This document shows, piece after piece, positions 35,176 through 56,121 of a DNA stretch of 64,000 bases (within the stretch, counting starts at the first letter, position 1; every line of letters begins with the position of its first letter). The notes beneath the pieces are model-generated. The model saw only the letters and a list, made by a program, of their open reading frames with translations, was not told the origin of the DNA and made no database searches. The translations under genes and the position numbers were made by a program. The DNA is from an uncultured bacterium. Its GTDB lineage: Bacteria; Verrucomicrobiota; Kiritimatiellia; CAIKKV01; CAITUY01. The stretch is from assembly GCA_903908715.1 (NCBI GenBank), contig CAIVSY010000063.1, positions 30,113 to 94,112 of the forward strand, given 5' to 3'.

Positions 35176-38100
35176 CTAGCCATCCAGATTCGCCTTGCGG
35201 CGTGGCGACTTGGGTGTCCCCACCAGCGATGGGAACTTGATACTCGGGGAATGCCGGTGGAACTCCTGCACACTGCATACTTCAATCCGTCCGGATTCAC
35301 GCATGGCGCATATTCCGGTCAAAGCCGCCCGCATGCCGTGGACGGTTGTCGTGATCGGGATATTCCGGATGACCGCATGCGACCTCATCTTGACTTCGTC
35401 AATCTTCGGCGCTGGCCCGCTGGATGGTGTGTTGACAATCCATTGCACACGCTTTTCCTCAATCAGGTCGACAACATTCGGGCGCCCCTCGGAGATCCGG
35501 AACAGGGCGTGTGTCGGGATCCCGTTCGACCACAAGAGCGTACTTGTCCCCACCGTGGCAAAAATCGTGAACCCCATCTCGTGCAGCTGACGGGCCATGG
35601 GCAGGATCTCAGCCTTATCCTCGTCGCGAACGCTGAGGAAAACATTTCCTTTCGCGGGGAGCGGATTCCCGGCCGCAATCTGGCTCTTGAGGAATGCCAT
35701 CCCGCTGTTGCTGTCAATCCCCATCACTTCGCCGGTGGACTTCATTTCCGGCGTCAGGATCACATCCACTCCCGGGAAACGGGCAAACGGAAACACCGCC
35801 TCCTTTACCGAAAAATGCCGCGGCACGATCTCCGTTGTGTACCCCATATCCTTGAGTTTGAACCCCGCCATTACCAAAGCCGCCAGCTTGGCTAGTGGCA
35901 CCCCTATTGCCTTGCTGACGAATGGAACTGTCCGCGACGCCCGCGGATTCACCTCCAATACATACACCTGCCCGTCTTTGACGGCATACTGCACATTCAT
36001 CAAACCCATGACCCCGAGCTCTCCGGCCATCAGAATCGTACAACGCCGGATCTCCTCCTTGACAGAGTCCGGCAAGGTCGGCGGCGGTATGGTACAGGCA
36101 CTATCGCCGGAATGAATGCCGGCCAGCTCGACGTGCTCCATGATAGACCCTATGACCGTCGTCTGCCCGTCGGAAATGCAATCCACGTCCACTTCGACAG
36201 CGTTCTCAAGATACCGGTCCACCAGAACCGGCCGCTTCTCGGAAACCTCGACCGCTTCGGCCATGTACTTTCGCAGCATTTCACGGTCATAGACGATCAC
36301 CATGGCCCGGCCCCCAAGAACAAAGGAAGGCCTCATCAGCACAGGATACCCGATTCGCTCGGCGATCTTCTCCGCCTGCTCCACCGTGGTGGCCATGCCG
36401 TTGTCCGGCTGCTTCAATCCGAGTTTACGAATCATCGCCTGGAAAAGATCACGATCCTCGGCGACCTCAATGCTTGCCGGTTTCGTACCGATAATATTGA
36501 CCCCGCTGGCTTCAAGATCCCGCGCCAGGTTCAAGGGCGTCTGCCCTCCGAACTGCACAATCGCCCCCCAGCATTCCTCCCGCCGGTAGATATGCAGGAC
36601 GTCTTCCAGCGTTAACGGTTCAAAATACAGGCGATCACTGGTGTCGTAGTCCGTGGACACCGTTTCGGGGTTGCTGTTAACCATGATGGTCTCGAACCCC
36701 GCCTCGTGTAGCGCAAAGGCCGCGTGCACACAGCAGTAATCAAACTCAATCCCCTGCCCGATCCGGTTGGGCCCGCCGCCGAGAATCATGACCTTCTTCT
36801 TTGTGCTGGCCCGGCTCTCATCCAATTCCCCGTAGGTTGAATAGAAATACGGGGTGAAAGCGGGAAATTCGGCGGCACAGGTATCGACCAATCCGTAGTT
36901 CGGCAGCAGGTTCATGACCTCCCGCGCGTCCCGGACCTCCGCCTCCTTGCACCCCAACAGCCACGCAAGTTGCCGATCCGAATACCCCATCTCCTTTGCC
37001 TGCCGGAAGAGCGCGGCATTCTTCCTCATGCCATCCAGCCCGCACGCCCCGCGGATTTCGTCCTCGTACGCCGCCAGTTCCTCCATATGGCGGAGAAACC
37101 ATGGATCAATTCCGGTGATTTCATGAACACGCTCGACGCTCCATCCCCTCTTGAACGCCGCTCGAATCACGAACACACGCATGGCGTTCGGCCGTTCCAG
37201 CTCCGACTCCAACTTCGCGTCGCTCATTCCCTCAAATGGGCTGTCCTTGCCATCCGCGCCAAAGCCCGCACGCCCCACCTCCAGGGAACGGCACGCCTTC
37301 TGGAAGGACTGCTTGAATGTCCGACCAATACTCATGGCCTCCCCGACGGATTTCATCTGCGTCCCTAGCCGACTGTCCACTCCAGGGAATTTCTCAAATG
37401 CAAAACGGGGCATCTTGGTGACGACATAATCGATGGCCGGCTCAAAGCATGCGGGCGTCTCACGGGTAATGTCATTCCTCAACTCGTCAAGCGTGTAGCC
37501 TACCGCCAGCTTGGCGGCAATCTTGGCAATCGGAAATCCCGTGGCCTTTGACGCCAGCGCACTGGACCGCGAAACGCGCGGATTCATCTCTATGATCACC
37601 ATCCGCCCGTTACAGGGATTCAAAGCCCATTGCACATTGGATCCGCCTGTATCCACCCCGATCTCCCGCATCACGGCAAGGGAGGCATCCCGCATCCGCT
37701 GATATTCGCGGTCGGTCAAGGTTTGCGCGGGAGCGACCGTAATGCTGTCGCCCGTATGTACGCCCATCGGATCGAGGTTCTCAATCGAACAGACAATCAC
37801 ACAGTTATCCTTGCGGTCCCGCATGACCTCCAGTTCAAATTCCTTCCACCCCAGGACCGACTCCTCGATGAGTACTTCTGAAGTGGGACTGTAGAACAGG
37901 CCGCGACGGACGATTTCCTCGAACTCCCTTGCGTCCCGGGCAATACCGCCTCCCGTTCCGCCCAGCGTGAATCCCGGACGGATGACAACCGGCCAGGACC
38001 CGATCATCTCGCGTACCCTGACCGCCTCTTCCATCGAGTGTGCGGCACCGCTGACCGGAAGATCCATCCCGATCTTCTGCATGGCAGCCTTGAATAGCGC

Positions 38101-38487
38101 CCGGTCCTCCGCCTTGCGGATAATGTCGGCACGGGCCCCGATCATCTCCACCCCGTAACGGTTCAGTATCCCCGAATCATGCAGTTCCACCCCCAGATTC
38201 AACGCGGTCTGACCACCCAGAGTCGGCAACAACGCGTCCGGTCTCTCGCGACGGATAATCTCGCCAAGGATCTCCGCCTTCAGGGGCTCAATATACGTCC
38301 GATCGGCGAACTCCGGATCCGTCATGATGGTGGCCGGATTACTGTTCACCAGAACCAGTTCATACCCTTCCTCCTTCAGCGCCTTGCACGCCTGGACCCC
38401 GGAATAATCAAATTCACAGGCTTGCCCGATGACAATCGGGCCAGACCCTATCAGCATGATCTTCTTTATGTCGGTTCTCTTTGGCAT
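35176..38487 (-). CDS. carB: Carbamoyl-phosphate synthase large subunit
   Basis: [28 protein letters not shown], duplicated ATP-grasp domains, [20 protein letters not shown]-like C-terminus. Confidence 0.98.
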
Positions 38488-41677: not shown

Positions 41678-43144
41678 TCAAGAACATTCTTCCCCGCCGG
41701 ACTCGCCGGAAATCCCGCGGGAATCCAGATAAGCCTCTATCCCGGCCGCAGCCTGCCGCCCGTCACGAATCGCCCTCACCACCAGGGATGCTCCCATCGA
41801 CATGTCGCCCGAAACAAAAATCCCCGGAACATTGGTCATGTTGGCGGCATCCCTCCAGATTACGCCCCCCGTTCCCGTACGAAGCCCGAGGTCTGCAATC
41901 ATGCGGTTCGGCTTCGGACCGGTAAACCCCATCGCCAGCAGAACCAGATCGGCCTTCCATTCGCGGTCCGATCCCGGCACCTCACGCATGACAGGCCGCA
42001 CGGCCCCGGTCGGTGTCGCCCACTCGACATCCACCGTGCAAACCGCCGTCACCCTGCCGTTGGCCCCCTTGAACTTCTTTGTGGCCACAGCCCAATGCCG
42101 CTCGCAGCCTTCCTTGTGACTGCTGGATATACGCATCACGTACGGCCACATCGGCCACGGCGTCGACTCCGAACGCACGGGCGGCGGCTGGGGCAGAATC
42201 TCCACCTGCTTCACCTGGACCGCCCCCTGCCGGATCGCGGTCCCCACGCAATCGGATCCGGTGTCACCACCGCCGATTACAAGCACAGACTTGCCATCCG
42301 CAAGGATCGCACGATCCGGGTCAACGGACTCACCTGCTAAACGTCGATTCTGCTGTGTCAGATAGTCCATGGCGAAGTGGATTCCCGCCAGTTCCCGCCC
42401 AGGAACCGCCAGATCCCGCGGTTGTCTCGCGCCCGCACACAGGCAGATGGCATCAAAGCGGCCCCGCAGGTAGTGATAGGACAGATCCTCGCCAACCCGC
42501 ACACCCATTTCGAAGTCGACACCCTCCGCCTCCATCAGCGCGATCCTCCGGTCCACAATAACCTTCTCGAGCTTGAACTCCGGAATGCCATAACGCAGGA
42601 TTCCGCCCGCCCGGGCTGCGCTGTCGTACACAACCACCCGGAACCCGCGACGGTTGAGCGTATCGGCCACCGCCAATCCCGCAGGACCCGAACCGATAAC
42701 CGCCACACGCTCCCCCCGCCGTACAGCTGGCGGCCGCGGCTTCACCAATCCCAGTTCAAAGGCGCGTTCAATAATGGCCAGTTCGATCTGCCGGATGGTC
42801 ACCGGCTCGCGGTTAATCCCGAGCACACAGGAACCCTCGCAGGGGGCCGGGCAAATGCGCCCGGTGAACTCCGGGAAGTTGTTGGTTGCCAACAGCACCT
42901 CCAACGCATCCCGCCATCGGCCGTGATAAACATGGTCATTCCATTCCGGAATCACATTCTGCAAGGGACAACCACAGCCATGGCAAAAAGGAGTCCCGCA
43001 GTCCATACAACGAGCGGCCTGCTCCGTGATCCCGTCCTCCGCGAACCGCAGTTCCACGGCACGATAGTCCCGTACCCGGTCCTGGACCGGGCGATAGCCC
43101 GGTTCCTTCCTGCCGTATTCCATGAACCCCGTGGGCTTACCCAT
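41678..43144 (-). CDS. gltD: Glutamate synthase small subunit
   Basis: QAARCMDCGTPFC, NNFPEFTGRICPAPCE, GSGPAGL, GGGDTGSDC, GASLVV.AI. Confidence 0.97.
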   Translation of the reverse strand: MGKPTGFMEYGRKEPGYRPVQDRVRDYRAVELRFAEDGITEQAARCMDCGTPFCHGCGCPLQNVIPEWNDHVYHGRWRDALEVLLATNNFPEFTGRICPAPCEGSCVLGINREPVTIRQIELAIIERAFELGLVKPRPPAVRRGERVAVIGSGPAGLAVADTLNRRGFRVVVYDSAARAGGILRYGIPEFKLEKVIVDRRIALMEAEGVDFEMGVRVGEDLSYHYLRGRFDAICLCAGARQPRDLAVPGRELAGIHFAMDYLTQQNRRLAGESVDPDRAILADGKSVLVIGGGDTGSDCVGTAIRQGAVQVKQVEILPQPPPVRSESTPWPMWPYVMRISSSHKEGCERHWAVATKKFKGANGRVTAVCTVDVEWATPTGAVRPVMREVPGSDREWKADLVLLAMGFTGPKPNRMIADLGLRTGTGGVIWRDAANMTNVPGIFVSGDMSMGASLVVRAIRDGRQAAAGIEAYLDSRGISGESGGEECS

Positions 43145-46100
43145 GGACCACCTCCGCCCGCTCCGTCGCCTCGTCCTCGCGCATCATCTTTCCCAGCACG
43201 CGCCGGTATTCCATTGGAAAGACCTTTACAAAATAGGGCAGATGCTCCTCCCACCCGTCCAGAATCCGTCGCGCCTTGCGACTACCCGTGTATTCCATAT
43301 GCCGCCGGAGCATGGACCGGATCTCCTCCTGGTCCTTCGGGTCGGATACCATTTCAAGGTCAACCATATCCAAATTGCACCGGCTGTCGAAACTCCTGTC
43401 CTCGTCATAGACATAGGCCAGACCGCCGCTCATTCCAGCCGCGAAATTAACCCCCGTCCGTCCGAGGACAATGACACGTCCGCCTGTCATGTATTCGCAT
43501 CCATGGTCTCCCACTCCTTCCACGACCGCATGAGCTCCGCTGTTCCGTATGGCAAATCGCTCACCAGCGCGTCCGCAAATATACATCTCCCCGCAGGTGG
43601 CCCCGTAAAGAAGAACATTCCCCGCGATCACGTTCTCCGAAGGGTCGAAACCGGCCGATCCACCCGTCTTGAGAATAATCCGGCCTCCGGACAGCCCCTT
43701 GCCCACATAATCGTTGGCCTCACCCTCAAGAACCATCGTCATCCCCCGAACACACCACGCACCGAAACTCTGCCCCGCCGCACCTTGGAAGACAAGGGTC
43801 ACCGTATCCTCAGGGAGACCCTTGTGACCATGGCGACGGGCAATCTCCCCGGCAATCATGGTCCCCACCGTCCTATTCACATTGCGTATCGGAGAGGATA
43901 TCTGGACGGGATTTCCCCCTTCGATCGACTCCCGAACCCGTGGCATCAAGGCAAGATCCAGCGCCTGATCCAGTTCGTGATCCTGCCGCTCCATGCACCG
44001 GACCGGTCCCCCGGTTTGAGGGCGATAGAGAATACCGGAATAATCAAGCCCCCTCGCCTTCCAAAAGGCAATGGCATCGTTCATCTCCAGCAGGTCAGAA
44101 CGTCCCACCATCTCATCCACCGTGCGGATTCCCAGACTGGCCATGATTCCACGGGCCTCTTCAGCCACATAGGTCAGGAATCTCTGCAGGTACTCCGGCT
44201 TGCCAGCAAAACGCTTGCGCAATTCGGGATCCTGTGTCGCCACACCCACCGGACATGTATTGCTGTGGCACTTTCGCATCATGACACAACCCATCACCAC
44301 CAATGCCGTGGTGGCGAACCCGAATTCCTCGGCCCCGAGCAGAGCGGCAACAACCACATCACGTCCGGTCTTGATCTGGCCATCCGTCTGCAACCGGACC
44401 CGGCCACGCAGGTTATTCAGGACCAGCGTCTGCTGGGTTTCGGCCAATCCAAGCTCCCAGGGAACCCCCGCATGCTTGATGGAGGAGAGCGGAGATGCCC
44501 CTGTGCCCCCATCATAACCGCTGATGAGGATCATGTCCGCCTTAGCCTTTGCCACACCGGCCGCAATCGTGCCCACTCCCAGTTCCGAAACCAGCTTGAC
44601 CGAGACCCGGGCTCCACTGTTGATGTTCTTGAGGTCATAAATCAGCTGCTTGATGTCCTCGATCGAATAGATGTCATGGTGCGGCGGCGGCGAAATCAAG
44701 GTCACACCCGGCGTGGAATGACGGACACGGCCGATCTCATCGTCGACCTTATGCCCCGGCAACTGCCCGCCCTCCCCCGGCTTTGCTCCCTGGGCAATCT
44801 TGATCTGTAATTCCCGTGCATGGACGCAGTATTCCGCCGTTACACCGAACCGTCCGCTGGCAACCTGCTTAATGGCGCTGCAACGGCTGTCTCCGTTTGG
44901 AAGCGGAATATACCGGCCTGGATCCTCCCCACCCTCCCCGCTATTGCTCATGCCGCCCAAACGGTTCATGGCAATAGCAATCGTCTCATGCGCCTCACGG
45001 CTGATGGACCCGTAGGACATGGCGCCCGTGACAAATCGCTTGACGATCGCAGCCGCCGGTTCAACCTCCTCGACAGGCACGGGCAAGGCAGTCTTGAACC
45101 GGAACATTCCCCGAAGGGTGAACTGCCGCTCCGCCTGCTCATTGATCAACCGCGCGTATTCACGATACAAGGCAACATCATCCTGGCGGGTTGCCTGCTG
45201 CAGTTTGCTGATGGCATCCGGACTCCAGAGATGCCGCTCCCCATCCACCCGGTAGCGGTAATGGCCACCCGCAGTCAATAATTCCGGGGCATTCAAATGT
45301 CCTGCCCAAGCCTCGGTATGGCGCGCACAGGCCTCCGCGGCAATGCCGTCCAAGCCAATCCCTCCCACACGTGACGCAGTCCCCTCAAAATAGCGGTCAA
45401 CCACCTCGCGCTTCAGGCCGACGGCCTCAAATACCTGGGCGCTCCGGTAACTGCGCAGGGTGGAAATCCCCATCTTGGACATGACTTTCCGCAATCCCTC
45501 CTGTAGCGAAGCCACATAGTTTTCCAATGCCCTCGCCACACCGATATCCGCGCTTAACTCGCGCCGCTTGGCCATCGAAGCGACAATTTCAAACGCCATA
45601 TAGGGGTTCACGGCTGTCGCGCCATACCCCAGCAGCAGCGCCATATGCATCACCTCACGCGCATCCCCTGTCTCGAGCAGGATACCCACACCCGTTCTGC
45701 GGCCATCACGAATCAGCCGGCGATTGACCGCTGATGTCGCCAGAAGCGACGGAATCGGAACCTCGTCCACAGTGAGGCCCCGATCGCTGAGGATGATCAG
45801 GTTCGTGCCCTCACGCACCGCCTGCTCCACCTCGTTCCCGAGCCGCTCAAGGGCCGCCTCAAGGCGCATCCCCCCTTCCCCACGGGGAAACCCGATACGA
45901 AACGCCTTTACGCTGAAATCAGGAAGATTCAGGTCCCGGATCCGCGCCAGGTCCTCGTTGGAAAGAATGGGATGCCGTAACTTGATCAAGCGCGCATGCT
46001 GGGGAACTTCCGAGAGGATATTGGATGGATTCCCGATGAACGTCATCAGCGACATCACCAGTTCTTCGCGAATCGGATCAATCGGCGGATTGGTCACCTG

Positions 46101-47690
46101 CGCAAACATCTGCTTGAAATACGAGAACAGCAACTGCGGCTGATCCGAAAAAACCGCCAGCGGCGTGTCCGTCCCCATCGAACCCACCGGCTCATGCGCC
46201 TTGGAAGCCATCGGTTCGAGTATCATCTGCAGGTCCTCACGCGTATAACCGAACAAACGCTCCCGCCGCAACAAGGTCGATTCATCCGGATTCACCGGGG
46301 CCATTGCCTCGAACAAGCCTTGCACAAGGACCTTGTTTTCCTCCACCCAGCGCCGATAGGGTTGTTGACGCACCACCCGGCTCTTGATCTCACGGTCCTT
46401 GATGACCCGCCCGCTTTCGAAATCCACCAACAGCATCTGGCCGGGGCGCAAGGCTCCTTTCTCCTTGACCCGATCGACGGGAATGTCCAGCACCCCTGCC
46501 TCGGACGCCATGACCATGAAACCATCCCGTGTGAGAGTGTAGCGAGCGGGCCGTAGGCCATTGCGATCCAATAGCGTGCCGACCCGTAATCCATCGGTGA
46601 ACGCAACCGTTGCCGGACCATCCCAGGGCTCCATGAGGCCCGCGTGATACTCAAAAAAACCCTTCTGGTCAGGCCCCACGGGATATTTCGCGCCCCATGC
46701 TTCGGGTATGAGCATCATCATGGCATGCGGCATGGACCGGCCGGCCGCTGTCAACATCTCCAGCGCATTATCCAGGCAGGCGGAATCACTACCACCCGGG
46801 TCAATGATTGGCAGCAACTTCCGCATGTCGTCACCGAAAAGCAACGAGTGCATCTGCCGCTCGCGGGCCCGCATCTGGTTAAGATTGCCACGCAGGGTAT
46901 TAATCTCGCCGTTATGCGCCAGCATCCTGAACGGCTGCGAAAGTTCCCAGGAAGGAAAGGTGTTGGTACTGTAACGCTGGTGGAGAACCGCAACCGCACT
47001 CTGCACACGTTGGTCATTCAGTTCCGTGTAGAACCCCGACACCTGCCCCCCCATGAGCAATCCCTTGTAAACCACCGTCCGGGCAGAAAAGCTGACCACA
47101 TAAAAGCGCTCCCTTGGCCCCAGCAGTTCCGCAACCTTGCGCTGGACAATCTTGCGGACAACCAGCAGCTTGCGATCCAACGCCTCACCCGTCAGGCCAT
47201 TCCCCCCCACAAAAACCTGCATGACCAAAGGGCAATCCCGGCGGGCAAGTTCCCCCAAAATCGCCTGATCCGTGGGGACTTCCCGCCAACCCAGCAGGGT
47301 AACCCCTTCCACACGAAGCACAGACTCCATGACGGCCATACATTGTTTGCGAACCGCAGTCTGGGGCACAAACAACATGCCAACTCCATAGGCACCTCCA
47401 TCCGGCAAGGCGAACCCCAGTCGCTCCGCCTCCTCCCGGTAAAAGGCGTCCGGAACCTGAATCAGGATTCCAGCACCATCCCCCGTCGTCTGATCCCCTC
47501 CCACAGCCCCGCGGTGAAGCAGGTTCTTCAGGACCTCAATACCGTCCCGTATGATTGCATGACTGGGTTTCCCCTCGATATTCGCGACAAACCCCACCCC
47601 GCAACTGTCGTGTTCCTGAAGCGGGTCATACAATCCCTGGGCCGGAGGCAAGCCGTACTGGCCACCCTCCTTGCTGGATACATCCGTCAT
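43137..47690 (-). CDS. gltB: Glutamate synthase large subunit
   Basis: EHDSCGVGF (Ntn Cys), HQRYSTNT, AHNGEIN, GAKPGEGGQLPG, CVMMRKCHSNTCPVG, EGVGDHGCEYMTGG. Confidence 0.98.
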   Translation of the reverse strand: MTDVSSKEGGQYGLPPAQGLYDPLQEHDSCGVGFVANIEGKPSHAIIRDGIEVLKNLLHRGAVGGDQTTGDGAGILIQVPDAFYREEAERLGFALPDGGAYGVGMLFVPQTAVRKQCMAVMESVLRVEGVTLLGWREVPTDQAILGELARRDCPLVMQVFVGGNGLTGEALDRKLLVVRKIVQRKVAELLGPRERFYVVSFSARTVVYKGLLMGGQVSGFYTELNDQRVQSAVAVLHQRYSTNTFPSWELSQPFRMLAHNGEINTLRGNLNQMRARERQMHSLLFGDDMRKLLPIIDPGGSDSACLDNALEMLTAAGRSMPHAMMMLIPEAWGAKYPVGPDQKGFFEYHAGLMEPWDGPATVAFTDGLRVGTLLDRNGLRPARYTLTRDGFMVMASEAGVLDIPVDRVKEKGALRPGQMLLVDFESGRVIKDREIKSRVVRQQPYRRWVEENKVLVQGLFEAMAPVNPDESTLLRRERLFGYTREDLQMILEPMASKAHEPVGSMGTDTPLAVFSDQPQLLFSYFKQMFAQVTNPPIDPIREELVMSLMTFIGNPSNILSEVPQHARLIKLRHPILSNEDLARIRDLNLPDFSVKAFRIGFPRGEGGMRLEAALERLGNEVEQAVREGTNLIILSDRGLTVDEVPIPSLLATSAVNRRLIRDGRRTGVGILLETGDAREVMHMALLLGYGATAVNPYMAFEIVASMAKRRELSADIGVARALENYVASLQEGLRKVMSKMGISTLRSYRSAQVFEAVGLKREVVDRYFEGTASRVGGIGLDGIAAEACARHTEAWAGHLNAPELLTAGGHYRYRVDGERHLWSPDAISKLQQATRQDDVALYREYARLINEQAERQFTLRGMFRFKTALPVPVEEVEPAAAIVKRFVTGAMSYGSISREAHETIAIAMNRLGGMSNSGEGGEDPGRYIPLPNGDSRCSAIKQVASGRFGVTAEYCVHARELQIKIAQGAKPGEGGQLPGHKVDDEIGRVRHSTPGVTLISPPPHHDIYSIEDIKQLIYDLKNINSGARVSVKLVSELGVGTIAAGVAKAKADMILISGYDGGTGASPLSSIKHAGVPWELGLAETQQTLVLNNLRGRVRLQTDGQIKTGRDVVVAALLGAEEFGFATTALVVMGCVMMRKCHSNTCPVGVATQDPELRKRFAGKPEYLQRFLTYVAEEARGIMASLGIRTVDEMVGRSDLLEMNDAIAFWKARGLDYSGILYRPQTGGPVRCMERQDHELDQALDLALMPRVRESIEGGNPVQISSPIRNVNRTVGTMIAGEIARRHGHKGLPEDTVTLVFQGAAGQSFGAWCVRGMTMVLEGEANDYVGKGLSGGRIILKTGGSAGFDPSENVIAGNVLLYGATCGEMYICGRAGERFAIRNSGAHAVVEGVGDHGCEYMTGGRVIVLGRTGVNFAAGMSGGLAYVYDEDRSFDSRCNLDMVDLEMVSDPKDQEEIRSMLRRHMEYTGSRKARRILDGWEEHLPYFVKVFPMEYRRVLGKMMREDEATERAEVVHG

Positions 47691-47780: not shown

Positions 47781-49904
47781 TCATCGGTAGAACAGCATGT
47801 CCGCATACGTCGGCAGCGGCCAGTAACCCGATCCCATCACGGGTTCAACGGCATCCGCAACCCTGCGCAATGCCGACATGGCAGGCATCACACCATCCCG
47901 GAAGGAGACCGCCCTTTCCGGAGCGTGTTTTTCCGACATAGCCTTGCCAACGGCCAGTTCCAGATCATCGATCGCCGTCGCCAGCTCAGCGGCACTCCCG
48001 TTCAGGCGCCTCAGCAATGAAGCCTGCGCCGCCGGTGTCTCCCCCGCCGCCTCAACCGCATTCATCCCGACTGCCACATCCCCGGCAAACTTGACCACCG
48101 CCGGCAGGATCTCCCGACGCGCCATCTGCAACATCGTCCTGGCCTCGATCGCAATGGTCTTGGCGTAGTTCTCCAGCAGGATCTCGTGCCGGGCCTTGAT
48201 CTCACCCTTGGTCAACGTGCCGTGCTTGACGAGGACGGCCACGTTGTCCTTTTCCTGCATCGCGTTGATACCGTCCACACAATTGCGGATGTTCGGGAGA
48301 CCCCGCCGGCCTGCCTCCTCCACCCAGGCAGCGGAATAGTTGTCGCCGTTGAACACTATCGCCTCATGTTCCTTGGCGTACTCCTGCAACAGCTTCTGGA
48401 CGCGCGAATTGACGTCCTTCACCCCCTCGAGGTTGTCGGCAATCTCCATCAACGTATGGGCCACAATCGTGTTCAGGACGAAATTCGGCCCCGAAAGCGA
48501 CTGCGAGGAACCCGCCATGCGGAACTCGAACTTGTTGCCGGTGAATGCGAACGGCGATGTACGGTTCCGGTCCGTCGTGTCCTTGGGGATCGCAGGCAGA
48601 TGCGAAACCCCAAGCATCAACCGCCCACCCTGCTTGGACCGGTTCGCTCCACCTTCCCGCAACTGGGATAGAATATCCGTCAACTGATCCCCGAGAAAAA
48701 TCGACACAATCGCCGGCGGAGCCTCGTTGGCACCCAACCGGTGGTCGTTGCCCGGCGTTGCCACGGTCGCCCGCAACAGGCTGGAATACTTATGCACCGC
48801 CCGAATCACCGCCATCAGGAATACCAGAAACTGCATGTTGTCGTGAGGGGTGCTTCCCGGATTCAGCAGGTTGATCCCGTCATCGGTCCCGATCGACCAG
48901 TTATTGTGCTTCCCGGATCCGTTCACACCAGCAAAAGGCTTCTCGTGGAGCAGGCAGATGAACCCATGCCTGCGAGCTGTACGCTGCAGAACTTCCATCG
49001 TCAGCTGATTATGATCCACACCGATGTTGACGGTTGCGAAAACCGGGGCAATCTCATGCTGGGCCGGAGCCACCTCGTTATGCTGGGTCTTCGCCAGGAC
49101 CCCCAGTTTCCACAGCTCCTCGTTCAGATCCGCCATGAAGGACGCCACCCGCTCATGCAGAGTACCGAAGTACTGGTCCTCCATCTCCTGCCCTTTCGGT
49201 GGCGGCGCCCCGAACAGGGAGCGCCCGGCAAAACGCAGATCCGCCCGGCGCTCCACAAACTGACGATCGATCAGGAAATACTCCTGTTCCGCACCCAAAG
49301 TGGCGGTCACCCTTCGGCTCGTCGTATTCCCCAATGCCCGCAGCACGCGCGTGGCCTGGTTATTTAACGCCTCCATAGACCGTAACAAAGGGGTCTTTTT
49401 GTCCAGCGCCTCCCCCGTGTAGGACGCAAAGGATGTGGGAATGAAAAGCGTGATGTTCTTCCCGTCCCGCTTGATGAATACCGGCGACGTGCAATCCCAT
49501 ACCGTGTATCCACGCGCCTCAAAAGTCGCACGAATGCCGCCGGACGGGAACGAGGATGCATCCGGCTCGCCCTGCGTCAATTCCTTGCCGCTGAATTCCA
49601 TCATGATCCGGCCGTCGCTCGTCGGCGAAATGAATGAATCATGCTTCTCAGCCGTGATCCCGGTCATGGGCTGGAACCAGTGACAGAAATGCGTAGCCCC
49701 CTTTTCCACCGCCCAGTCCTTCATGGCATTCGCCACCACGTCAGCCACCGCGGGATCCAACTCCCGCCCTTCCTCAATCGTAGCCTTGAGCCTGCGATAT
49801 ATGTTCTTCGGCAACCGCTCCCTCATGACCGCATCGTTGAAAACATTCGAACCGAAAACCTCGGGAAGCCCCGACTCTTGCGTTGTCTCATTTCCGTTTT
49901 TCAT
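47781..49904 (-). CDS. glnA: Glutamine synthetase type III
   Basis: [88 protein letters not shown] before ATG 49904; an in-frame ATG also lies at 49976. Confidence 0.96.
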
Positions 49905-50021
49905 ACTGGCTCCTTCTTGCATCACAACTGCGTACGTGTCCCCTAACTTATACACCAACCCAACCCGGTTGACCATGAGGTTTCCTGACCGGATCGCCTA
50001 AAAAAGCACGATGGATGACTG

Positions 50022-50037
50022 AGCAACAAGCGTGCCA
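50022..50037 (-). promoter_or_regulatory. sigma54 (-24/-12) promoter for glnA-gltBD
   Basis: Minus strand TGGCAC-GCTTG-TTGCT, a full match to TGGCAC-N5-TTGCW (GG-N10-GC). Confidence 0.85.
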
Positions 50038-50100: not shown

Positions 50101-50150
50101 TGCTACAGATTTGTAACACAACCGCTCTCTTTGCTTCATTTTTGAATGCA
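50101..50150. promoter_or_regulatory. Candidate enhancer (activator-binding) palindromes
   Basis: TGCTACA-GATT-TGTAACA (50101-50118) and TGCTTCA-TTTT-TGAATGCA (50132-50150), between the two sigma54 promoters. Confidence 0.45.
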
Positions 50151-50277
50151 CGTGCAAACATCACTAATGGAAATCGGAGGGATAACAGGTTGAGTCCCAT
50201 GCAGAATTGCCGCTTCGGACGCTAACGCCCTCTGGAAATTGACCTCCAAAGGATTTCATGAGGGGAAACCGTTGCAT

Positions 50278-50293
50278 TGGCACAACTCTTGCA
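50278..50293 (+). promoter_or_regulatory. sigma54 (-24/-12) promoter for the PEP-synthase-like gene
   Basis: TGGCAC-AACTC-TTGCA, full consensus, 33 nt upstream of ATG 50326. Confidence 0.85.
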
Positions 50294-50325: not shown

Positions 50326-52950
50326 ATGAAAGGAAAACCGTCCACCCGAAACAAGCTCCCCCACTTCAGCACAGGATTACCTTCGCTCGATTCCACCCTG
50401 AACGGCCTTCTACCAGGGGATAACGTCGTATGGCAAGTCGACGAAATCAACGAGTACCGCCCGTTCGTTGACCGATTCATCGATTACAGCCGTACACTGG
50501 ATACCCCGATCGTCTACTTCCGGTTTGCCAGCCATCGCCCCTTGATTCCGGAAAATTCAGGCGTGGAAATCCATCCCGTGGAACCCGGCATGGGTTTTGA
50601 ACCCTTCGTCGGGGAAATCCTGGATGTGATCGAGCAGAAGGGTCGTGGCGCTTTGTACGTGTTCGACAGTTTGTCCGAATTGGCGGCTGACTGGTACAGC
50701 GATCGCATGCTGGGGAATTTCTTCATGATCACATGCCCCTTCCTGTTCCAACTCGACACCATCACGTACTTCGCACTGCTCAGCAATCATCATTCCTTCC
50801 ACGCCATCGACAGCATCCACCAGACAGCGCAGGTCGTTATCAATGTACACCGGAACCGGGAGCGGGTATTCATTCATCCACTAAAAGTGGAGAAGCGGTC
50901 TTCACCAACTCTGTACATGCTGCACGAATGGGAACGGGATGATTCCTTCATACCTGTCAGCGCGAGTACCACAATCGCCGAAATCATGGCCAGGGCTCCT
51001 CAGCCCTGGCTGGATTTTGCGGCAACCCGTCCCGGCATCTGGATGCAAACCGTCCTCCGGGCCCGCAAATCCATGGAGTCCTCCTTCGGCGGTTCCGGAT
51101 CACTGAAGGAAACCCAGGAATCCTTTCAACGTCTCCTGCGTGGCGCCATCACACGGGACGCCCGATTCCTGCCTCTGACCCGAAGATACTTCGACCTGCC
51201 GGATCTGCTTGCCATCATCCAGCGGATGATTGGCACAGGCCTCATTGGCGGCAAGGCACTCGGCATGCTGCTGGCCCGCGCCATTATCCGCAAGCATTCC
51301 CCGGAACTGCATGCTCGCATGGAGCCGCATGACTCTTTCTATATCGGCTCGGACGTCTTCTACACCTACCTCGTTCAAAACGGTTGCTGGGAACTGAGAC
51401 GCAAGGCCACCGACTTGAATTTCCTCATGGAGCAGAACGAGGCAACACAACGGAAGCTTATGTCCGGTTCCTTTCCAGACTATATCCGACGGCAGTTTTC
51501 GGAAATGCTGGACTACTTCGGGCAGGCACCCATCATTGTCCGCTCAAGTTCACTGCTCGAGGACAGCTACGGGAATGCCTTCTCCGGGAAGTATGAGACG
51601 GTCTTTTGCGCCAACCAGGGCAACCCTGCGCAACGCCTTGAATCGTTCATGCAGGCTGTACGCACCGTGTATGCCAGCACATTGAGCCCCGAAGCCCTCT
51701 CCTACAGGCACCAGCGCGGCCTTCTCGATCGGGACGAACAAATGTCCCTCCTGGTCCAACGGGTTTCCGGTGACCGCCACGGCACCAATTACTTCCCCCA
51801 GGTTGCCGGCGTTGGCTTCTCCTTCAATCCTTTCGTCTGGAATGAGGATATTGACCCGAAAGCCGGCATGATCCGGTTGGTCTTTGGTCTCGGCACCCGC
51901 GCCGTGGACCGGACAGGCGATGACTACACCCGCCTGATCGCCCTGAATGCGCCCGAAAAGAGACCCGAAGGCGCCCCGGGTGACTCGATCCGCTATTCGC
52001 AGCATAATGTCGATGTCCTCGACCTCTCCGAAAATCAGCTCAAGGAGAAATCGATCGCCGAGGTACTCCATGATCTTCCTGGAAGATTCCCTCAGGACCT
52101 GTTCTTTGACCGGCACGGCACACCCATCGCATCAGGGCATGAGTTCTGGCACACCACCTTCAACCGCATGATCCGCGAGACGCCATTTGTGGCCGACATG
52201 CGAGCCGTGCTGGAAATCGTTCAGGATGCCTATGAGCATCCTGTCGATATCGAATTCACCGCAAACTTCTCCAGCGCTTCGGATTACCGCATCAATCTGG
52301 TACAATGCCGGCCATTCCAGGTCCGCATCACGGGAAGCAGCGACCGCCTGCGTTCTCCGTCCACCCTCCGCCGGCAGGATATCCTCCTCGAAAGCGGCGG
52401 ACCGATCATAGGGCAAAGCGCATCAACCCCGGTCGACCGGCTGGTGCTCGTTGTGCCTGCGGTATATGGAAGAATGACCGTCAACGAACGATATGCCGTG
52501 GCGCGCGCCATAGGCAAACTGAACCGCCTGGCTGCATCCGGGCCAGCCATGACGCTCATGCTAGTCGGTCCTGGGCGTTGGGCCACCACCACACCCGCGC
52601 TGGGCATCCCCGTCTCCTTTGCTGAAATAAATGCAGCATCGATCGTCTGTGAGATTGCCGCCATGCACGAGGGCTTGATCCCGGACGTCTCGCTGGGCAC
52701 CCATTTCTTTAACGACCTCGTTGAAATGAACATGCTGTACCTTGCGGTTGCTCCTGACCGCAAGGGGCACAACGTGAACAGTTCCCTGATCACCAGCTTA
52801 CCGAACAAACTGACAACCCTCCTGCCACAGTCATCAGGCTTGGAGCAAGTCCTCTGGGTGGTCGACAGCGTGGATATCGCGGGCGGTGCGCGACTGTATC
52901 TGCATGCCGACAGCTTCAAGCAAAAAGCCGTTGTCTACCTTTCCCGATAA
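50326..52950 (+). CDS. PEP/pyruvate-binding (PPDK_N ATP-grasp) domain protein with a degenerate RecA/KaiC-like N-terminus; not a canonical PEP synthase
   Basis: STGLPSLD..LNGL..GDNVV and YVFDSLS (KaiC-like); IGGKA, VRSSSLLED...FSGKYET, LLVQRV, VAGVGFS, GLGTRAV, DIEF, VQCRP (ATP-grasp); C-terminal GPGRW...SLGTHFF. No TIM-barrel PEP domain is recognisable. Confidence 0.85.
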   Translation: MKGKPSTRNKLPHFSTGLPSLDSTLNGLLPGDNVVWQVDEINEYRPFVDRFIDYSRTLDTPIVYFRFASHRPLIPENSGVEIHPVEPGMGFEPFVGEILDVIEQKGRGALYVFDSLSELAADWYSDRMLGNFFMITCPFLFQLDTITYFALLSNHHSFHAIDSIHQTAQVVINVHRNRERVFIHPLKVEKRSSPTLYMLHEWERDDSFIPVSASTTIAEIMARAPQPWLDFAATRPGIWMQTVLRARKSMESSFGGSGSLKETQESFQRLLRGAITRDARFLPLTRRYFDLPDLLAIIQRMIGTGLIGGKALGMLLARAIIRKHSPELHARMEPHDSFYIGSDVFYTYLVQNGCWELRRKATDLNFLMEQNEATQRKLMSGSFPDYIRRQFSEMLDYFGQAPIIVRSSSLLEDSYGNAFSGKYETVFCANQGNPAQRLESFMQAVRTVYASTLSPEALSYRHQRGLLDRDEQMSLLVQRVSGDRHGTNYFPQVAGVGFSFNPFVWNEDIDPKAGMIRLVFGLGTRAVDRTGDDYTRLIALNAPEKRPEGAPGDSIRYSQHNVDVLDLSENQLKEKSIAEVLHDLPGRFPQDLFFDRHGTPIASGHEFWHTTFNRMIRETPFVADMRAVLEIVQDAYEHPVDIEFTANFSSASDYRINLVQCRPFQVRITGSSDRLRSPSTLRRQDILLESGGPIIGQSASTPVDRLVLVVPAVYGRMTVNERYAVARAIGKLNRLAASGPAMTLMLVGPGRWATTTPALGIPVSFAEINAASIVCEIAAMHEGLIPDVSLGTHFFNDLVEMNMLYLAVAPDRKGHNVNSSLITSLPNKLTTLLPQSSGLEQVLWVVDSVDIAGGARLYLHADSFKQKAVVYLSR

Positions 52951-53065: not shown

Positions 53066-54820
53066 CTATTCACGCGTGTCAAGGAAACGGTACAAGGTAG
53101 CTCTCGATACACCCAGAAGTCGGGCAGCCTCCACCTTGTTCCCTTGCGTCTTCTCCAGCGCCTCCCGTACCGCTTCATCATCCAGGCGCAAGCGCCCTTT
53201 CGGCCCCGGCCCCCCCTCGGCTGCAACCAATCCGCGCATCGGCGCCAAGGCCACCGGCGGGAGATGCTCCGGCAGGATGCTGTCCCCTTTACACTTGATC
53301 AGGGCAAATTGGATCCAATTCTGCAATTCACGGACATTCCCGGGCCAGTCGTAGCCCAGCATGACATCCATCGCCTCTGCCGAAAAACTCATCTTGCGGC
53401 GCACCCCTCCCTCGGTCAGGCGCGAAAGGAAATGATTCGCCAGAAGCGGAATGTCATTCCGACGATCCCTTAAAGGAGGAACCGTGAGAGGCACCACACT
53501 CAACCGGTAGTACAGGTCCTCCCGGAAGCGCCCTTCCGCCATTTCACGGCGCAAATCCTTGTTCGTGGCGCTGATGACCCGCACATTGACCTTGAGTGTC
53601 TTCTCCCCGCCAACCCGCTCAAAGGCGCCTTCCTGCAGGACACGCAGAAGCTTGACCTGCATGGCGGTTGATATATCCCCGATCTCATCCAGGAAAATCG
53701 TGCCGCCGTCCGCCAGCTCAAAGCGGCCTTTCTTGTCACGCACCGCCCCTGTGAAAGCACCGCGAACATGCCCGAACAACTCACTTTCAAGCAACCCTTC
53801 CGGCAGAGCGCCACAATTGACCGGAACGAACAATTTTGTGCCTCGCGGCCCCTCGTTATGCAGGGCCGCAGCAATCAGTTCCTTCCCGGTTCCGCTTTCC
53901 CCCTGGATCAGGACCGGTGCGGCAGACTCGGCAAGTTCCGGGATCAGGTCATACAGGGCAAGCATCTTGGTGTCCCGCCCGATGATGCCCGCAAACTGCT
54001 GGATCTCTCCCAGTCTCCTTGCCAGTTGCTGCTCACGCGTCATGTCCCTGAAACATGCCAGCACAGCCGTTTGCCGCCCCCCGGGGTCCCGTACAGCCGT
54101 TACCGTCATCTCGATCCGTCGCCGCTCGCCCGACGCCGTGGCAATTTCGACTTCCCGAAGCACATCCTTCGAAGGCGGCACCATGCCTTCACAAAAGGCA
54201 CACTTTCCACCACACAGGCCGCCCGCCATGACCTCATGACAGTCCTGGTTGATCACATCCTCACGTCTATAGCCTGTGATCCTCTCTGCAGCCTTGTTGA
54301 ATCCCAGGATCCGCCGATTGAGGTCATGGATAATCACCCCATCCGTCAAGTGATCCAAAATCAGTTCAGACTGCTCCCGGGCATGGAACAGAGCCGCAAG
54401 ATACCCATGCGAGAACAACTCATTGACCAATCCACGAACGATTGCCGCCAGGGCCCGGATAGCGTCCTGCCTGCCTGCCGGATCCCCGTCCCCCGCCGGA
54501 AGCCTTGCGATGTTCCAATGAAGACAAAGCGGATTCCCCGGAAGGTTCCGGCACTGCTCGGCCGCCTCGTCGCAAAGAGTGATGACCAGGTCATACTCTC
54601 TGCGCATCGCCTCATCACGCTGCACACCCGCTCCCGGATCCGGCAGATCGATCTCGCGTAACAACGCGGCAACAGCAGGATCAACCCCGGTATTATCCAA
54701 ACCGGCAAAAACGATTTCCTGGTCGGTCTTGCGATAGGACCGGGAAAACGCCGCAGCCAGAAAGCCTCGGCTCGCATCCCCTCCCGACACAAACAGGATC
54801 CTGTATCTTCTAGTTGCCAT
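53066..54820 (-). CDS. sigma54 enhancer-binding protein: ArsC/LMW-PTP-like domain + PAS + AAA+ + Fis HTH
   Basis: RILFVSGGDASR...DLVITLCDEAAEQC...LHW; DGVIIHD...FNKAAERITGY (PAS); GESGTGKE, GAFTGA, FLDE, WPGNVREL; HTH. AAGGA SD before ATG 54820. Confidence 0.9.
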   Translation of the reverse strand: MATRRYRILFVSGGDASRGFLAAAFSRSYRKTDQEIVFAGLDNTGVDPAVAALLREIDLPDPGAGVQRDEAMRREYDLVITLCDEAAEQCRNLPGNPLCLHWNIARLPAGDGDPAGRQDAIRALAAIVRGLVNELFSHGYLAALFHAREQSELILDHLTDGVIIHDLNRRILGFNKAAERITGYRREDVINQDCHEVMAGGLCGGKCAFCEGMVPPSKDVLREVEIATASGERRRIEMTVTAVRDPGGRQTAVLACFRDMTREQQLARRLGEIQQFAGIIGRDTKMLALYDLIPELAESAAPVLIQGESGTGKELIAAALHNEGPRGTKLFVPVNCGALPEGLLESELFGHVRGAFTGAVRDKKGRFELADGGTIFLDEIGDISTAMQVKLLRVLQEGAFERVGGEKTLKVNVRVISATNKDLRREMAEGRFREDLYYRLSVVPLTVPPLRDRRNDIPLLANHFLSRLTEGGVRRKMSFSAEAMDVMLGYDWPGNVRELQNWIQFALIKCKGDSILPEHLPPVALAPMRGLVAAEGGPGPKGRLRLDDEAVREALEKTQGNKVEAARLLGVSRATLYRFLDTRE

Positions 54821-54840
54821 TCTCTGTTCCTTCCCAAGAA

Positions 54841-56121
54841 TCAACGGTCCAGAAGCCCGTCTTCCACCGCCTGACGAATTAACCGCTCTGCATATTCCCA
54901 TAAGGCGGCCGACCCTTGCTCGACATGGCTGTTGCGTTCACGAACCTGGCCCTGATCAATGCCGTGGGTACGCCAGACAACTCCGCCGGTGTAGTAGTTG
55001 TGAAGCAGCGGCTGCACACGGTCAAGAGCAGCGGCAAACCTCGCCTCCGGGGTCCGGCGCGCCTCGAATTCATCCCACAAGCCGCGAACCCATGCCGCCT
55101 GATCCGGCGGCAGAATGCCGAATACCCGGTTGGCGGCAGCTCGTTCGCGCTCCAGTTTCCCGGCGTTCCCGGTCACGTCATAGCAATACGTATCCCCGGC
55201 ATCGATTTCCACAAGATCATGCATCAGCACCATCTCCACCACTCGCGCAATATCGATATCCTTGATCACCGCAAACTCCCGCAATAGAACCGCCATCACG
55301 GCCAGATGCCAGGAGTGCTCCGCATCGTTCTCGTAGCGGCTCCCATCCATGAGCAGGGTCTTGCGAAACACATGCTTAAGCTTATCGATCTCCAGTATGA
55401 ACTCCATGATCCTTGCCAGCCGCTCGCCGCCAGCCTCCGCGGCGGGCATCACGGGCCGCATAGAAAAGGAGGCTGTCGATCCGGGGCCTGCCGCTGCACG
55501 GGCCTCAAGCCAATCCAGGAGGTGACCGGCAACCGCACGCTTGCTCATGAGCGGCAATTCCCGGAAGGAGCCATCCGGAAAAACCAGCAGCACCCGGTTC
55601 GTATCCACATCAAAGCCAGCGTCGGTCTGACGGACATCGTTCGCCACAATCATGTCCACGCCCTTGGCCCCACACTTGCGGCGGGCCTCCAACAATACGT
55701 CTTCCGTCTCCGCAGCAAACCCTATCACGATGCGGCTCCCCTTCTCGTCCCGCAATTCGCGAAGGATGTCTGGGGTCGGGACAAGGCGCAAATCCGCGCC
55801 TGCCGTCAGCTTCTTGATCTTCTCGTGACGGAACTCAGCCGGACGCCAATCGGCCACGGCAGCCGCCATTACGAGGGCATCACAGGTCCGGAAGTGCCGC
55901 TGGACCAACGCCAGCATCTCGGCGGCAGAAACTGCCCTTTCCACCAGAACACCCGCCGGCGCCGGCAAGGAAACCGGACCACTGACCAGGACAACCTCGT
56001 GACCCCGTGCACGTGCAACCTCCGCTACCGCGTAGCCCATTTTCCCGGACGAACGATTGCTTAAAAAACGCACCGGGTCCAGATGCTCCCGGGTCGGTCC
56101 AGCGGTAACCAGGATTCGCAT
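54841..56121 (-). CDS. coaB: CoaB (phosphopantothenate--cysteine ligase) domain fused to an HD-domain (HD_3, 5'-deoxynucleotidase-like) hydrolase
   Basis: N-half VTAGPTRE.LDPVRFLSNRSSGKMG, AAAVADW, GFAAET, IVANDV; C-half ENDAEHSWH, MHDLVEIDAGDTY, EARFAAALDR. No stop codon between the halves. Confidence 0.85.
   Translation of the reverse strand: MRILVTAGPTREHLDPVRFLSNRSSGKMGYAVAEVARARGHEVVLVSGPVSLPAPAGVLVERAVSAAEMLALVQRHFRTCDALVMAAAVADWRPAEFRHEKIKKLTAGADLRLVPTPDILRELRDEKGSRIVIGFAAETEDVLLEARRKCGAKGVDMIVANDVRQTDAGFDVDTNRVLLVFPDGSFRELPLMSKRAVAGHLLDWLEARAAAGPGSTASFSMRPVMPAAEAGGERLARIMEFILEIDKLKHVFRKTLLMDGSRYENDAEHSWHLAVMAVLLREFAVIKDIDIARVVEMVLMHDLVEIDAGDTYCYDVTGNAGKLERERAAANRVFGILPPDQAAWVRGLWDEFEARRTPEARFAAALDRVQPLLHNYYTGGVVWRTHGIDQGQVRERNSHVEQGSAALWEYAERLIRQAVEDGLLDR

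Follow-up and report, generated by a model that had tools for sequence, protein, structure and literature searches.

The DNA considered here is a window of 64,000 nt from contig CAIVSY010000063.1 (the window is the whole stretch that was analysed, and all coordinates are positions in it), which is present in lake-water metagenome runs. The gene of interest lies on the plus strand (50326–52950) and is an intact open reading frame (ORF) encoding a protein of 874 amino acids, P0001, in which a pseudo-KaiC domain, an ATP-grasp domain of the PPDK_N type and a domain with an invariant histidine follow one another. The nearest relatives of P0001 are 86%, 82% and 79% identical to it, align over their full length and are each also about 874 amino acids long. 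Since a word-indexed search returned more than 8000 full-length relatives, the nearest of them 86% identical, the ORF can be taken as a real gene. As the family adjoins, in many phyla, the genes that convert ammonium to glutamate and glutamine, its probable role is that of an ATP-driven controller of nitrogen assimilation that has so far gone unrecognised.

Concerning the domain content of P0001, the sole Pfam domain detected was PPDK_N (PF01326; residues 306–670, E = 2e-48), the ATP-grasp domain of pyruvate phosphate dikinase (PPDK) and its relatives. Neither the swivel domain PEP_mobile (PF00391) nor the TIM barrel of the enzymes that use phosphoenolpyruvate (PEP; PF02896) was found in a Pfam scan of the 874-residue protein, in line with an earlier note, made from the letters of this DNA, which had seen no PEP barrel; there is, moreover, no sequence left over in the protein to house such a barrel. 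Scored against the NCBIfam models of PEP synthase, PPDK and RPH (rifampin phosphotransferase), the protein reached 17–58 bits, the cut-offs being 456–1700, and only its ATP-grasp part was matched. The scores were 47–58 bits versus cut-offs of 598–883 for the PEP synthase and PPDK models (e.g., 57.8 versus 883), and 30.6 bits versus 999 for the RPH model NF041857, with the match again confined to the ATP-grasp part. The full-length AlphaFold2 model, built on an alignment of 54 sequences (mean pLDDT 83.5, pTM 0.80), displays three globular parts and two low-confidence linkers (residues 224–237 and 663–684). Among the PPDK-type dikinases, the family has an architecture that is new, and its His-bearing domain has no recognised fold. 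All the motifs that the earlier note had quoted were located in the translation: STGLPSLD (residues 15–22), LNGLLPGD (25–32), FDSLS (113–117), AASIVCE (770–776) and SLGTHFFNDLVEM (789–801). So, it can be said that what the earlier note had observed was confirmed in full, and that its interpretation is supported only in part.

The ATP-grasp domain (residues 306–670; 51241–52335, plus strand) was delimited by the Pfam match, by Foldseek and by alignment with PpsA, the PEP synthase of E. coli. Its motifs are GGK (308–310), VRSSS (405–409, extending as VRSSS..ED to residue 413), DIEF (641–644) and QCRP (660–663); all of them are invariant in the family, with K310, R406, E412/D413, D641/E643 and Q660/R662 as the invariant residues, and all align with those of PpsA by BLASTP. 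The best structural matches of this part of the protein (residues ~301–662) were RPH (5hv3, E = 1e-13) and HpeI (9goj). By motif criteria, the nucleotide site can be considered intact, as the earlier note had held for the central PPDK motifs. The domain is followed by a linker of 22 residues (~663–684; 52312–52377, plus strand; mean identity 0.46), without secondary structure in the model (pLDDT 60–72), which tethers the C-terminal domain.

The C-terminal alpha/beta domain of ~190 residues (~685–874; 52378–52947, plus strand) was defined from its AlphaFold2 model and its invariant residues. When modelled alone from 43 diverse sequences, it gave a pLDDT of 90.3 and a pTM of 0.89. It contains the candidate phospho-carrier or catalytic histidine, His793 (codon CAT, 52702–52704, plus strand), the conservation of which the earlier note had proposed to check. 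This residue was 100% conserved, being invariant in 54 close relatives, in 43 phylum-diverse relatives and in 90 representatives clustered at 50%, remote paralogues included: the 90 representatives comprise proteins of ~770, ~1060 and ~1500 amino acids that are just 30–37% identical. Invariant alongside His793 in these representatives were R751 (in GPGRW, 748–752), G760, E776, S789 and G791, and the core segment 744–808 showed a mean identity of 80%. In the model, His793 is at the N-terminus of a helix (792–800), behind a low-confidence loop (781–789). In BLASTP against E. coli PpsA, the high-scoring segment pair that covers DIEF...QxRP extends in colinear fashion as far as the first strands of the swivel domain of PpsA, and therefore the C-terminal domain is placed exactly where a swivel domain would be. 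Judging from its conservation, His793 is certainly essential, and by analogy with the known dikinases a carrier role for it is plausible.

The N-terminal domain (residues ~14–223; 50365–50994, plus strand) has the KaiC/RecA fold and is devoid of a P-loop, according to Foldseek and to a scan for Walker A. Against the PDB, Foldseek returned KaiC (many entries), the KaiC CI domain (4tl7), FlaH (4yds), PH0284 (2dr3) and RecA, with E values of ~1e-8 to 1e-7 and TM scores, normalised to the single-domain targets, of 0.63–0.70. Since the matches to KaiC, FlaH and PH0284 reach E values of ~1e-8, the KaiC-like assignment is right at the level of the fold, and the Foldseek check proposed in the earlier note gave the RecA/KaiC likeness that the note had read from the first residues. 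The backing by sequence profiles was marginal (PH0284 at E = 0.28, and hints of PAXNEB), so the assignment is drawn from the fold search. No Walker A motif ([AG]x4GK[ST]) occurs in the whole 874-residue protein or in the N-terminal domains of 43 out of 43 diverse relatives, and the family reads D-x-I-E/D-D-Y-x-P-F in the segment that follows strand 1. The Walker-B-like FDSLS is kept, and its D114, which closes a hydrophobic strand, is invariant, so that the earlier note was right both about the missing Walker A and about the retained Walker-B-like sequence. Further invariant polar or aromatic residues are D32, N33, R66, H70, S117, W123, D126, T167, Q169 and R191. Two of them, R66 and H70, belong to the sequence YFRFxxH, found behind strand 2 at the place of the catalytic glutamates of KaiC, this correspondence being mapped by sequence order only. 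From these sequence features, the P-loop-less domain would be unable to bind ATP in the usual way. A helical connector (residues ~238–300; 51037–51225, plus strand), recognised from the AlphaFold2 secondary structure, joins the N-terminal domain to the ATP-grasp; with a mean identity of 0.48, it is the structured part with the least conservation.

The superfamily is widespread, uncharacterised and mis-annotated as PEP synthase or PPDK. When 1.84 billion representatives (50% clustering) were searched exhaustively with HMMER, 3555 matched at E ≤ 1e-3 and 734 at E ≤ 1e-30; there are thousands of members at 50–60% identity, and at least 550 species carry the gene when one genome per species is scanned. 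The names given to the relatives in databases are 'PEP/pyruvate-binding domain-containing protein', 'pyruvate, water dikinase', 'pyruvate phosphate dikinase' and 'hypothetical protein'. The members of the family clusters bear only names of metagenome-assembled genomes (MAGs), and no cultured host was found among them. The best 80 loci of those at least 550 species, with a mean of 10.8 kb of flanking DNA each, were taken for the study of gene linkage. Their proteins are 50–70% identical and come from Verrucomicrobiota, Kiritimatiellia, Lentisphaerota, Omnitrophota, Planctomycetota, Spirochaetota, Fibrobacterota, Elusimicrobiota, Nitrospirota, Desulfobacterota and other 'delta' lineages, Myxococcota, Chloroflexota and Actinomycetota, and also from Methanomassiliicoccales archaea. 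Five of the loci (L028, L031, L034, L036 and L039) belong to archaeal MAGs, of Methanomassiliicoccales and others, with copies 52–54% identical to the bacterial protein, which implies transfer between domains of life; no nitrogen-assimilation genes were found in the flanks of these five.

The core formed by the ATP-grasp and the C-terminal domain (residues ~270–872) aligns over its whole length with the paralogues of ~770, ~1060 and ~1500 amino acids, which differ in what is attached to it. Those of ~770 amino acids have an unassigned N-terminus of ~150–200 residues before the core. Those of ~1060 end, in five out of five tested, in a Pol-beta-type nucleotidyltransferase domain (PF01909/PF18765) placed after the His domain; carriers of this domain are P0234, P0237, P0243, P0249, P0251 and P0188, one of them of 1654 amino acids. 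The proteins P0032–P0037 and P0121 (1461–1513 amino acids) are natural fusions of a core-only copy with a complete KaiC-type copy, which suggests that both types of paralogue work together. No receiver-fused forms appeared among the best 150 representatives. That paralogues exchange their N-terminal module, and may gain a nucleotidyltransferase, argues for the ATP-grasp and the His domain as the catalytic unit and for the KaiC-like domain as an accessory module for targeting or sensing. In its modularity the family resembles signalling enzymes more closely than pathway enzymes.

The neighbours of the family gene in the 80 loci were found by tblastn, and their identities were verified with Pfam. 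The gene for glutamate dehydrogenase (GDH), gdhA, was present in 35 loci, in 17 of them within 600 bp and in all orientations. The gene for the large subunit of glutamate synthase (GOGAT), gltB, was present in 20 loci, in 13 of them directly downstream on the same strand with a median gap of 230 bp, and gltD-like genes in 19, about five of which are NfnB-like and adjoin an NfnA-like gene and gdhA. Less frequent were nrpR (8 loci), type III glutamine synthetase (GSIII; 5 loci) and amtB (4 loci). Altogether, at least one gene out of gdhA, gltB/D, GSIII, nrpR and amtB was present in 51 of the 80 loci, while the chance expectation for a single-copy gene is ~0.2. The earlier note had mentioned similar PPDK_N proteins encoded next to genes for GDH or glutamine synthetase (GS) in anaerobes, and these counts bear out the linkage. 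The partners vary even among the closest relatives, as loci L002, L003 and L023 have GSIII and gltB, like the present one, and loci L004, L005 and L008 have gdhA and nrpR; the association is therefore with the whole ammonium-assimilation node and not with one enzyme. A cassette recurs just upstream of the family gene in three loci (L032, 3130–9583; L037, 1212–9598; L048, 3123–9598), composed of an NfnA-like gene, an NfnB/GltD-like gene and gdhA, with gdhA ahead of the Nfn-like pair in L048. In this way, a module that probably supplies NADPH is coupled to GDH and to the dikinase-like gene.

In the window itself, the family gene is divergent from a gene for GSIII (47781–49976, minus strand; Pfam GSIII_N, 1e-79, Gln-synt_C and Gln-synt_C-ter). 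Downstream of GSIII, all on the minus strand, come gltB, for the large subunit of glutamate synthase (43137–47690; GATase_2, Glu_syn_central, Glu_synthase and GXGXG), gltD, for the small subunit (41678–43144; Fer4_20 and Pyr_redox_2), purF and pyrG. No gdhA, nrpR, amtB or second paralogue was found within the 64-kb window. The intergenic region of 349 nt between GSIII and the family gene holds, back to back, two perfect sigma-54 (-24/-12) promoters, both read from the sequence. One of them, TGGCAC-aactc-TTGC (50278–50292, plus strand), ends 33 nt before the ATG of the family gene, and the other, TGGCAC-gcttg-TTGC (50023–50037, minus strand), faces the GSIII-gltB-gltD operon. Exact matches to TGGCAC-N5-TTGC in the window numbered three versus 0.19 expected; the third (35896–35910, plus strand) lies inside, and antisense to, an ORF of 1103 amino acids (35176–38487, minus strand), and is probably due to chance. 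By eye, an equivalent of the element on the GSIII side (GCAA-N5-[AG]TGCCA) could be made out at the corresponding position of three syntenic loci, L002, L003 and L023. Midway between both promoters there is a perfect palindrome of 10 bp, TGCACGTGCA (50147–50156), a candidate enhancer (upstream activating sequence) for the activator encoded nearby.

Directly downstream of the family gene and convergent with it is the gene for a sigma-54 enhancer-binding protein with PAS, AAA+ and HTH_8 domains (53066–54901, minus strand; Sigma54_activat, 1e-69), which is a candidate activator of both promoters. Before its PAS domain, this protein has ~175 residues with a sub-threshold match to the low-molecular-weight phosphotyrosine phosphatase family LMWPc (E = 7e-4; 20.3 bits versus a cut-off of 23.2), a region that may be a pseudo-phosphatase or an arsenate-reductase-like sensor domain. 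Farther on, an ORF of 426 amino acids (54841–56121, minus strand) shows the unusual combination of a DFP domain (CoaB-type C-terminal part of the pantothenate-metabolism flavoprotein, E = 6e-67) fused to an HD_3/YfbR-like phosphohydrolase (E = 4e-50). The segment 56137–57638 (minus strand) contains an ORF of 294 amino acids with a weak, partial match to thymidylate synthase (E = 7e-10, profile positions 88–222) and, upstream of it, an ORF of 206 amino acids with no Pfam family.

As to the function of the family, the likeliest reading is that P0001 is a regulatory, AMP-forming phosphotransfer enzyme (a dikinase) of the glutamate/glutamine node, acting through His793 and having a neighbouring enzyme as acceptor or partner; we hold this proposal, which draws on analogy, with a little less than even confidence. 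By analogy with PEP synthase, PPDK, RPH and VadK, the ATP-grasp domain would split ATP to AMP and load a phosphoryl group on His793, and the tethered C-terminal domain would deliver this group from His793 to an acceptor. The acceptor would be in the ammonium-assimilation node, most likely GDH, GOGAT or GS, and the enzyme would then be a protein-modifying or protein-binding dikinase. The KaiC-fold domain would direct or gate the core, most likely as a module for docking, oligomerisation or ligand sensing, because paralogues replace it with other modules. In the present lineage, transcription would start from the sigma-54 promoter placed back to back with that of GSIII-gltB-gltD, and this predicted pairing implies that the family gene is expressed as part of the nitrogen response. 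The architecture, the folds of two of the domains, the intact ATP-grasp motifs, the invariance of His793, the gene linkage and the promoter motifs are results of the analysis; in this scheme, we infer the phosphorylation of His793, the role of the N-terminal domain and both the identity and the nature of the target.

A number of observations weigh against the proposal of a regulatory dikinase. The first concerns the C-terminal domain, which the earlier note had likened to the swivel domain of PEP synthase. Its model gave nothing at E ≤ 1e-3 in a Foldseek search of the PDB, the best match having E = 5.7e-3 and a TM score of 0.23, and there was no chain of PEP synthase, PPDK, Enzyme I or RPH among the top 50 of 645 weak matches. 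When a profile of the domain (43 sequences) was run with hmmsearch at E ≤ 10 on all PDB sequences, no PEP-utilising enzyme came out, and Pfam scans of the domain in the 43 members, also at E ≤ 10, gave no match, to PF00391 or otherwise. Aligned by hhalign with a swivel profile of six sequences (E. coli PpsA and PtsI, the PEP synthase 2ols, 8a8e, 9dae and the RPH 5fbs), the domain scored a probability of 0.3%, and a profile of two sequences was also null. The position of His793, its invariance and the analogy with known dikinases are thus what argues for a carrier role, because neither homology nor fold likeness to swivel domains was detected. Besides, the N-terminal domain is as conserved as the catalytic parts (mean identity 0.64 versus 0.65 for the ATP-grasp), which is unusual for a mere sensor. 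On the genomic side, 29 of the 80 loci lack any nitrogen gene in the flanking DNA studied, only 3 of the 80 have a sigma-54 activator similar to the present one as neighbour, and a sigma-54 promoter before the family gene was seen, among 76 loci, only here and in L041. The linkage itself is a functional association and not a mechanism, and a metabolite acceptor explains it equally well. Finally, no characterisation of the family and no experimental data on any member were found in the searchable literature.

Recognisable homology of the C-terminal domain to swivel domains is accordingly rejected on the null results of hmmsearch, Pfam, Foldseek with the PDB, hhalign and, additionally, BFVD (viral folds), where the model of the domain had no significant match. 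The likeness claimed in the earlier note is not supported, and the fact that Foldseek recognised no swivelling beta/beta/alpha fold arguably refutes that part of its interpretation. A lack of conservation of His793, which the note had also named as refuting, was clearly not observed. Other candidates were also discarded. The recurring Foldseek matches to phosphoesterases of the Mre11/SbcD type and to TIM-barrel glycosidases were uninformative (TM ≤ 0.30, probability ≤ 0.4), and the register GPGRWGT..LGVPV / GGRTxH..ELGIPAVV, obtained by greedy hhalign, was dropped as noise (probability 0.3%). Either the fold of the domain is new, or it is a derivative too elaborated to be detected; going by the model, if His793 carries phosphate, the carrier fold would be new. 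Concerning the promoter region, the ideas that a sigma-54 promoter is family-wide (it was found in one of 76 other loci) and that the sigma-54 activator is a conserved partner (three of 80 loci have one like it next to the gene) were both rejected; being so rare, these are features of the lineage and not of the family.

An alternative that seems unlikely, and is yet one of the main rivals, has a small molecule as acceptor: a metabolite from the 2-oxoglutarate/glutamate/glutamine node, or a signalling compound made from such a metabolite, would be phosphorylated by means of the ATP-grasp and His793. Either the C-terminal domain or the KaiC-like domain, with its remodelled nucleotide pocket, would bind this substrate, and the reaction would be comparable to that of RPH on rifampin or of enzymes of the HpeI type on phenolic ketones. 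Most characterised PPDK_N enzymes take small molecules, the best structural matches of the ATP-grasp (RPH and HpeI) being cases in point, and the KaiC-like pocket keeps D32, N33, R66, H70, D114, S117, D126, T167, Q169 and R191 invariant. The very high conservation across phyla and into archaea would fit a universal metabolite as ligand, and many loci have the gene close to gltB-gltD and running in their direction, as in an operon. However, its placement with respect to gdhA is often divergent or convergent and not operonic, an AMP-forming phosphorylation is required by none of the pathway steps known at this node, and the swapping of N-terminal domains and the addition of nucleotidyltransferases in paralogues are more typical of signalling.

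The other main rival, only slightly less likely, is that His793 is not a carrier at all and that the C-terminal domain is itself catalytic or ligand-binding, with R751, E776, S789 and H793 as the active site and the GPGRW strand-loop as an anion-binding site. The chemistry would then be new to PPDK_N enzymes, or the protein would be an ATP-dependent scaffold or switch without covalent transfer. The fold of the domain, unrelated to swivel domains, and its size of ~190 residues, twice that of a swivel domain, speak for this possibility, as do the invariant R/E/S/H residues and the Gly-rich loop after a strand, which look like an active or phosphate-binding site. On the other hand, all the characterised PPDK_N domains use a phosphohistidine on a mobile domain, and the linker, together with a histidine at the N-terminus of a helix behind a flexible loop, matches the carrier scheme. 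Two further alternatives are easily dismissed. That the N-terminal domain is a working ATPase or autokinase of the KaiC/RecA type, making P0001 a two-ATPase enzyme or a clock-like timer, would agree with the KaiC fold and the invariant Walker-B-like D114, but is highly improbable and indeed excluded by the lack of Walker A, with its Lys/Thr, in 43 out of 43 N-terminal domains, and the position of the catalytic Glu reads YFRFxxH (by sequence order only) with R66 and H70 invariant. An ordinary PEP synthase or PPDK, as the database names of the relatives and the presence of PPDK_N would have it, is the least credible of all and is excluded by the domain content, with no TIM barrel, no PEP_mobile, a foreign KaiC-like domain and scores of 51–58 bits versus 598–883.

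GDH, GOGAT and GS are the entry gate of nitrogen into biomass, and what is well understood of their post-translational control comes mainly from proteobacteria, actinobacteria and cyanobacteria. If the family is indeed a regulatory dikinase, it would bring a new signalling chemistry at the junction of carbon and nitrogen metabolism, a new fold for a phosphohistidine carrier and a new use for a pseudo-KaiC domain, and a widespread error of annotation as PEP synthase or PPDK would be corrected. It is a more doubtful proposition that the family constitutes a hitherto unrecognised system, of very wide phylogenetic spread, for the post-translational control of ammonium assimilation, in which a histidine on a new, non-swivel fold would be loaded, the pseudo-KaiC domain would guide it by docking or sensing, and GDH, GOGAT and/or GSIII would receive the phosphoryl group or be switched in another way. 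If true, such a system would take the part played by GlnE and GlnD in proteobacteria, and it might explain old reports of unexplained reversible inactivation of GDH in anaerobes; Yamamoto and co-workers are said to have described in 1987 that the GDH of B. fragilis is reversibly inactivated in vivo.

The comparison of P0001 with known systems starts with RPH (PDB 5hv1, 5hv3 and 5fbs), to whose structure the central ATP-grasp is most similar (Foldseek E = 1e-13). Like P0001, RPH is a PPDK_N enzyme of three domains that lacks the PEP/pyruvate barrel, and in either protein specificity is set by a third domain that is not a barrel. However, the order in RPH is ATP-grasp, rifampin-binding domain and a canonical swivel His domain (GGxxTH), whereas here a KaiC-fold domain precedes the ATP-grasp and the His domain has an unrelated fold; neither the rifampin-binding domain nor a whole-protein match to RPH was found in P0001 (30.6 bits versus 999 with NF041857). 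PpsA and PPDK share with it the PPDK_N ATP-grasp with all the nucleotide-binding motifs, and the C-terminal domain after QxRP occupies the position of the PpsA swivel, at an equal distance. They differ in that P0001 has neither the PF00391 swivel nor the PF02896 barrel and has an extra, KaiC-like domain at the N-terminus. KaiC CI, FlaH/ArlH and PH0284 resemble the N-terminal domain in fold, in the GLPxLDxxLxG lead-in and in the Walker-B-like Asp, but the domain of the family has no P-loop (43 out of 43) and is fused to a dikinase core. GlnE, the adenylyltransferase of GS, and GlnD, the uridylyltransferase of PII, are functional analogues only, as covalent controllers of ammonium assimilation driven by ATP or UTP. 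They have no sequence relationship to P0001, for which phosphoryl transfer is proposed instead of nucleotidylylation, although a nucleotidyltransferase domain of the Pol-beta type, from the broad superfamily to which theirs belong, is found in some paralogues of the family. VadK (Rv1127c) of Mycobacterium tuberculosis is a derivative of PPDK that no longer has the PEP barrel; it phosphorylates itself on His422 and binds enzymes of the methylcitrate cycle (PMC13400623). With ~490 amino acids, it keeps a canonical swivel domain, has no KaiC-like domain and is concerned with the methylcitrate cycle and not with nitrogen. Nevertheless, as a regulatory His autokinase derived from PPDK and tied to the enzymes of one pathway, VadK is the closest functional model for the family described here (PMC13400623).

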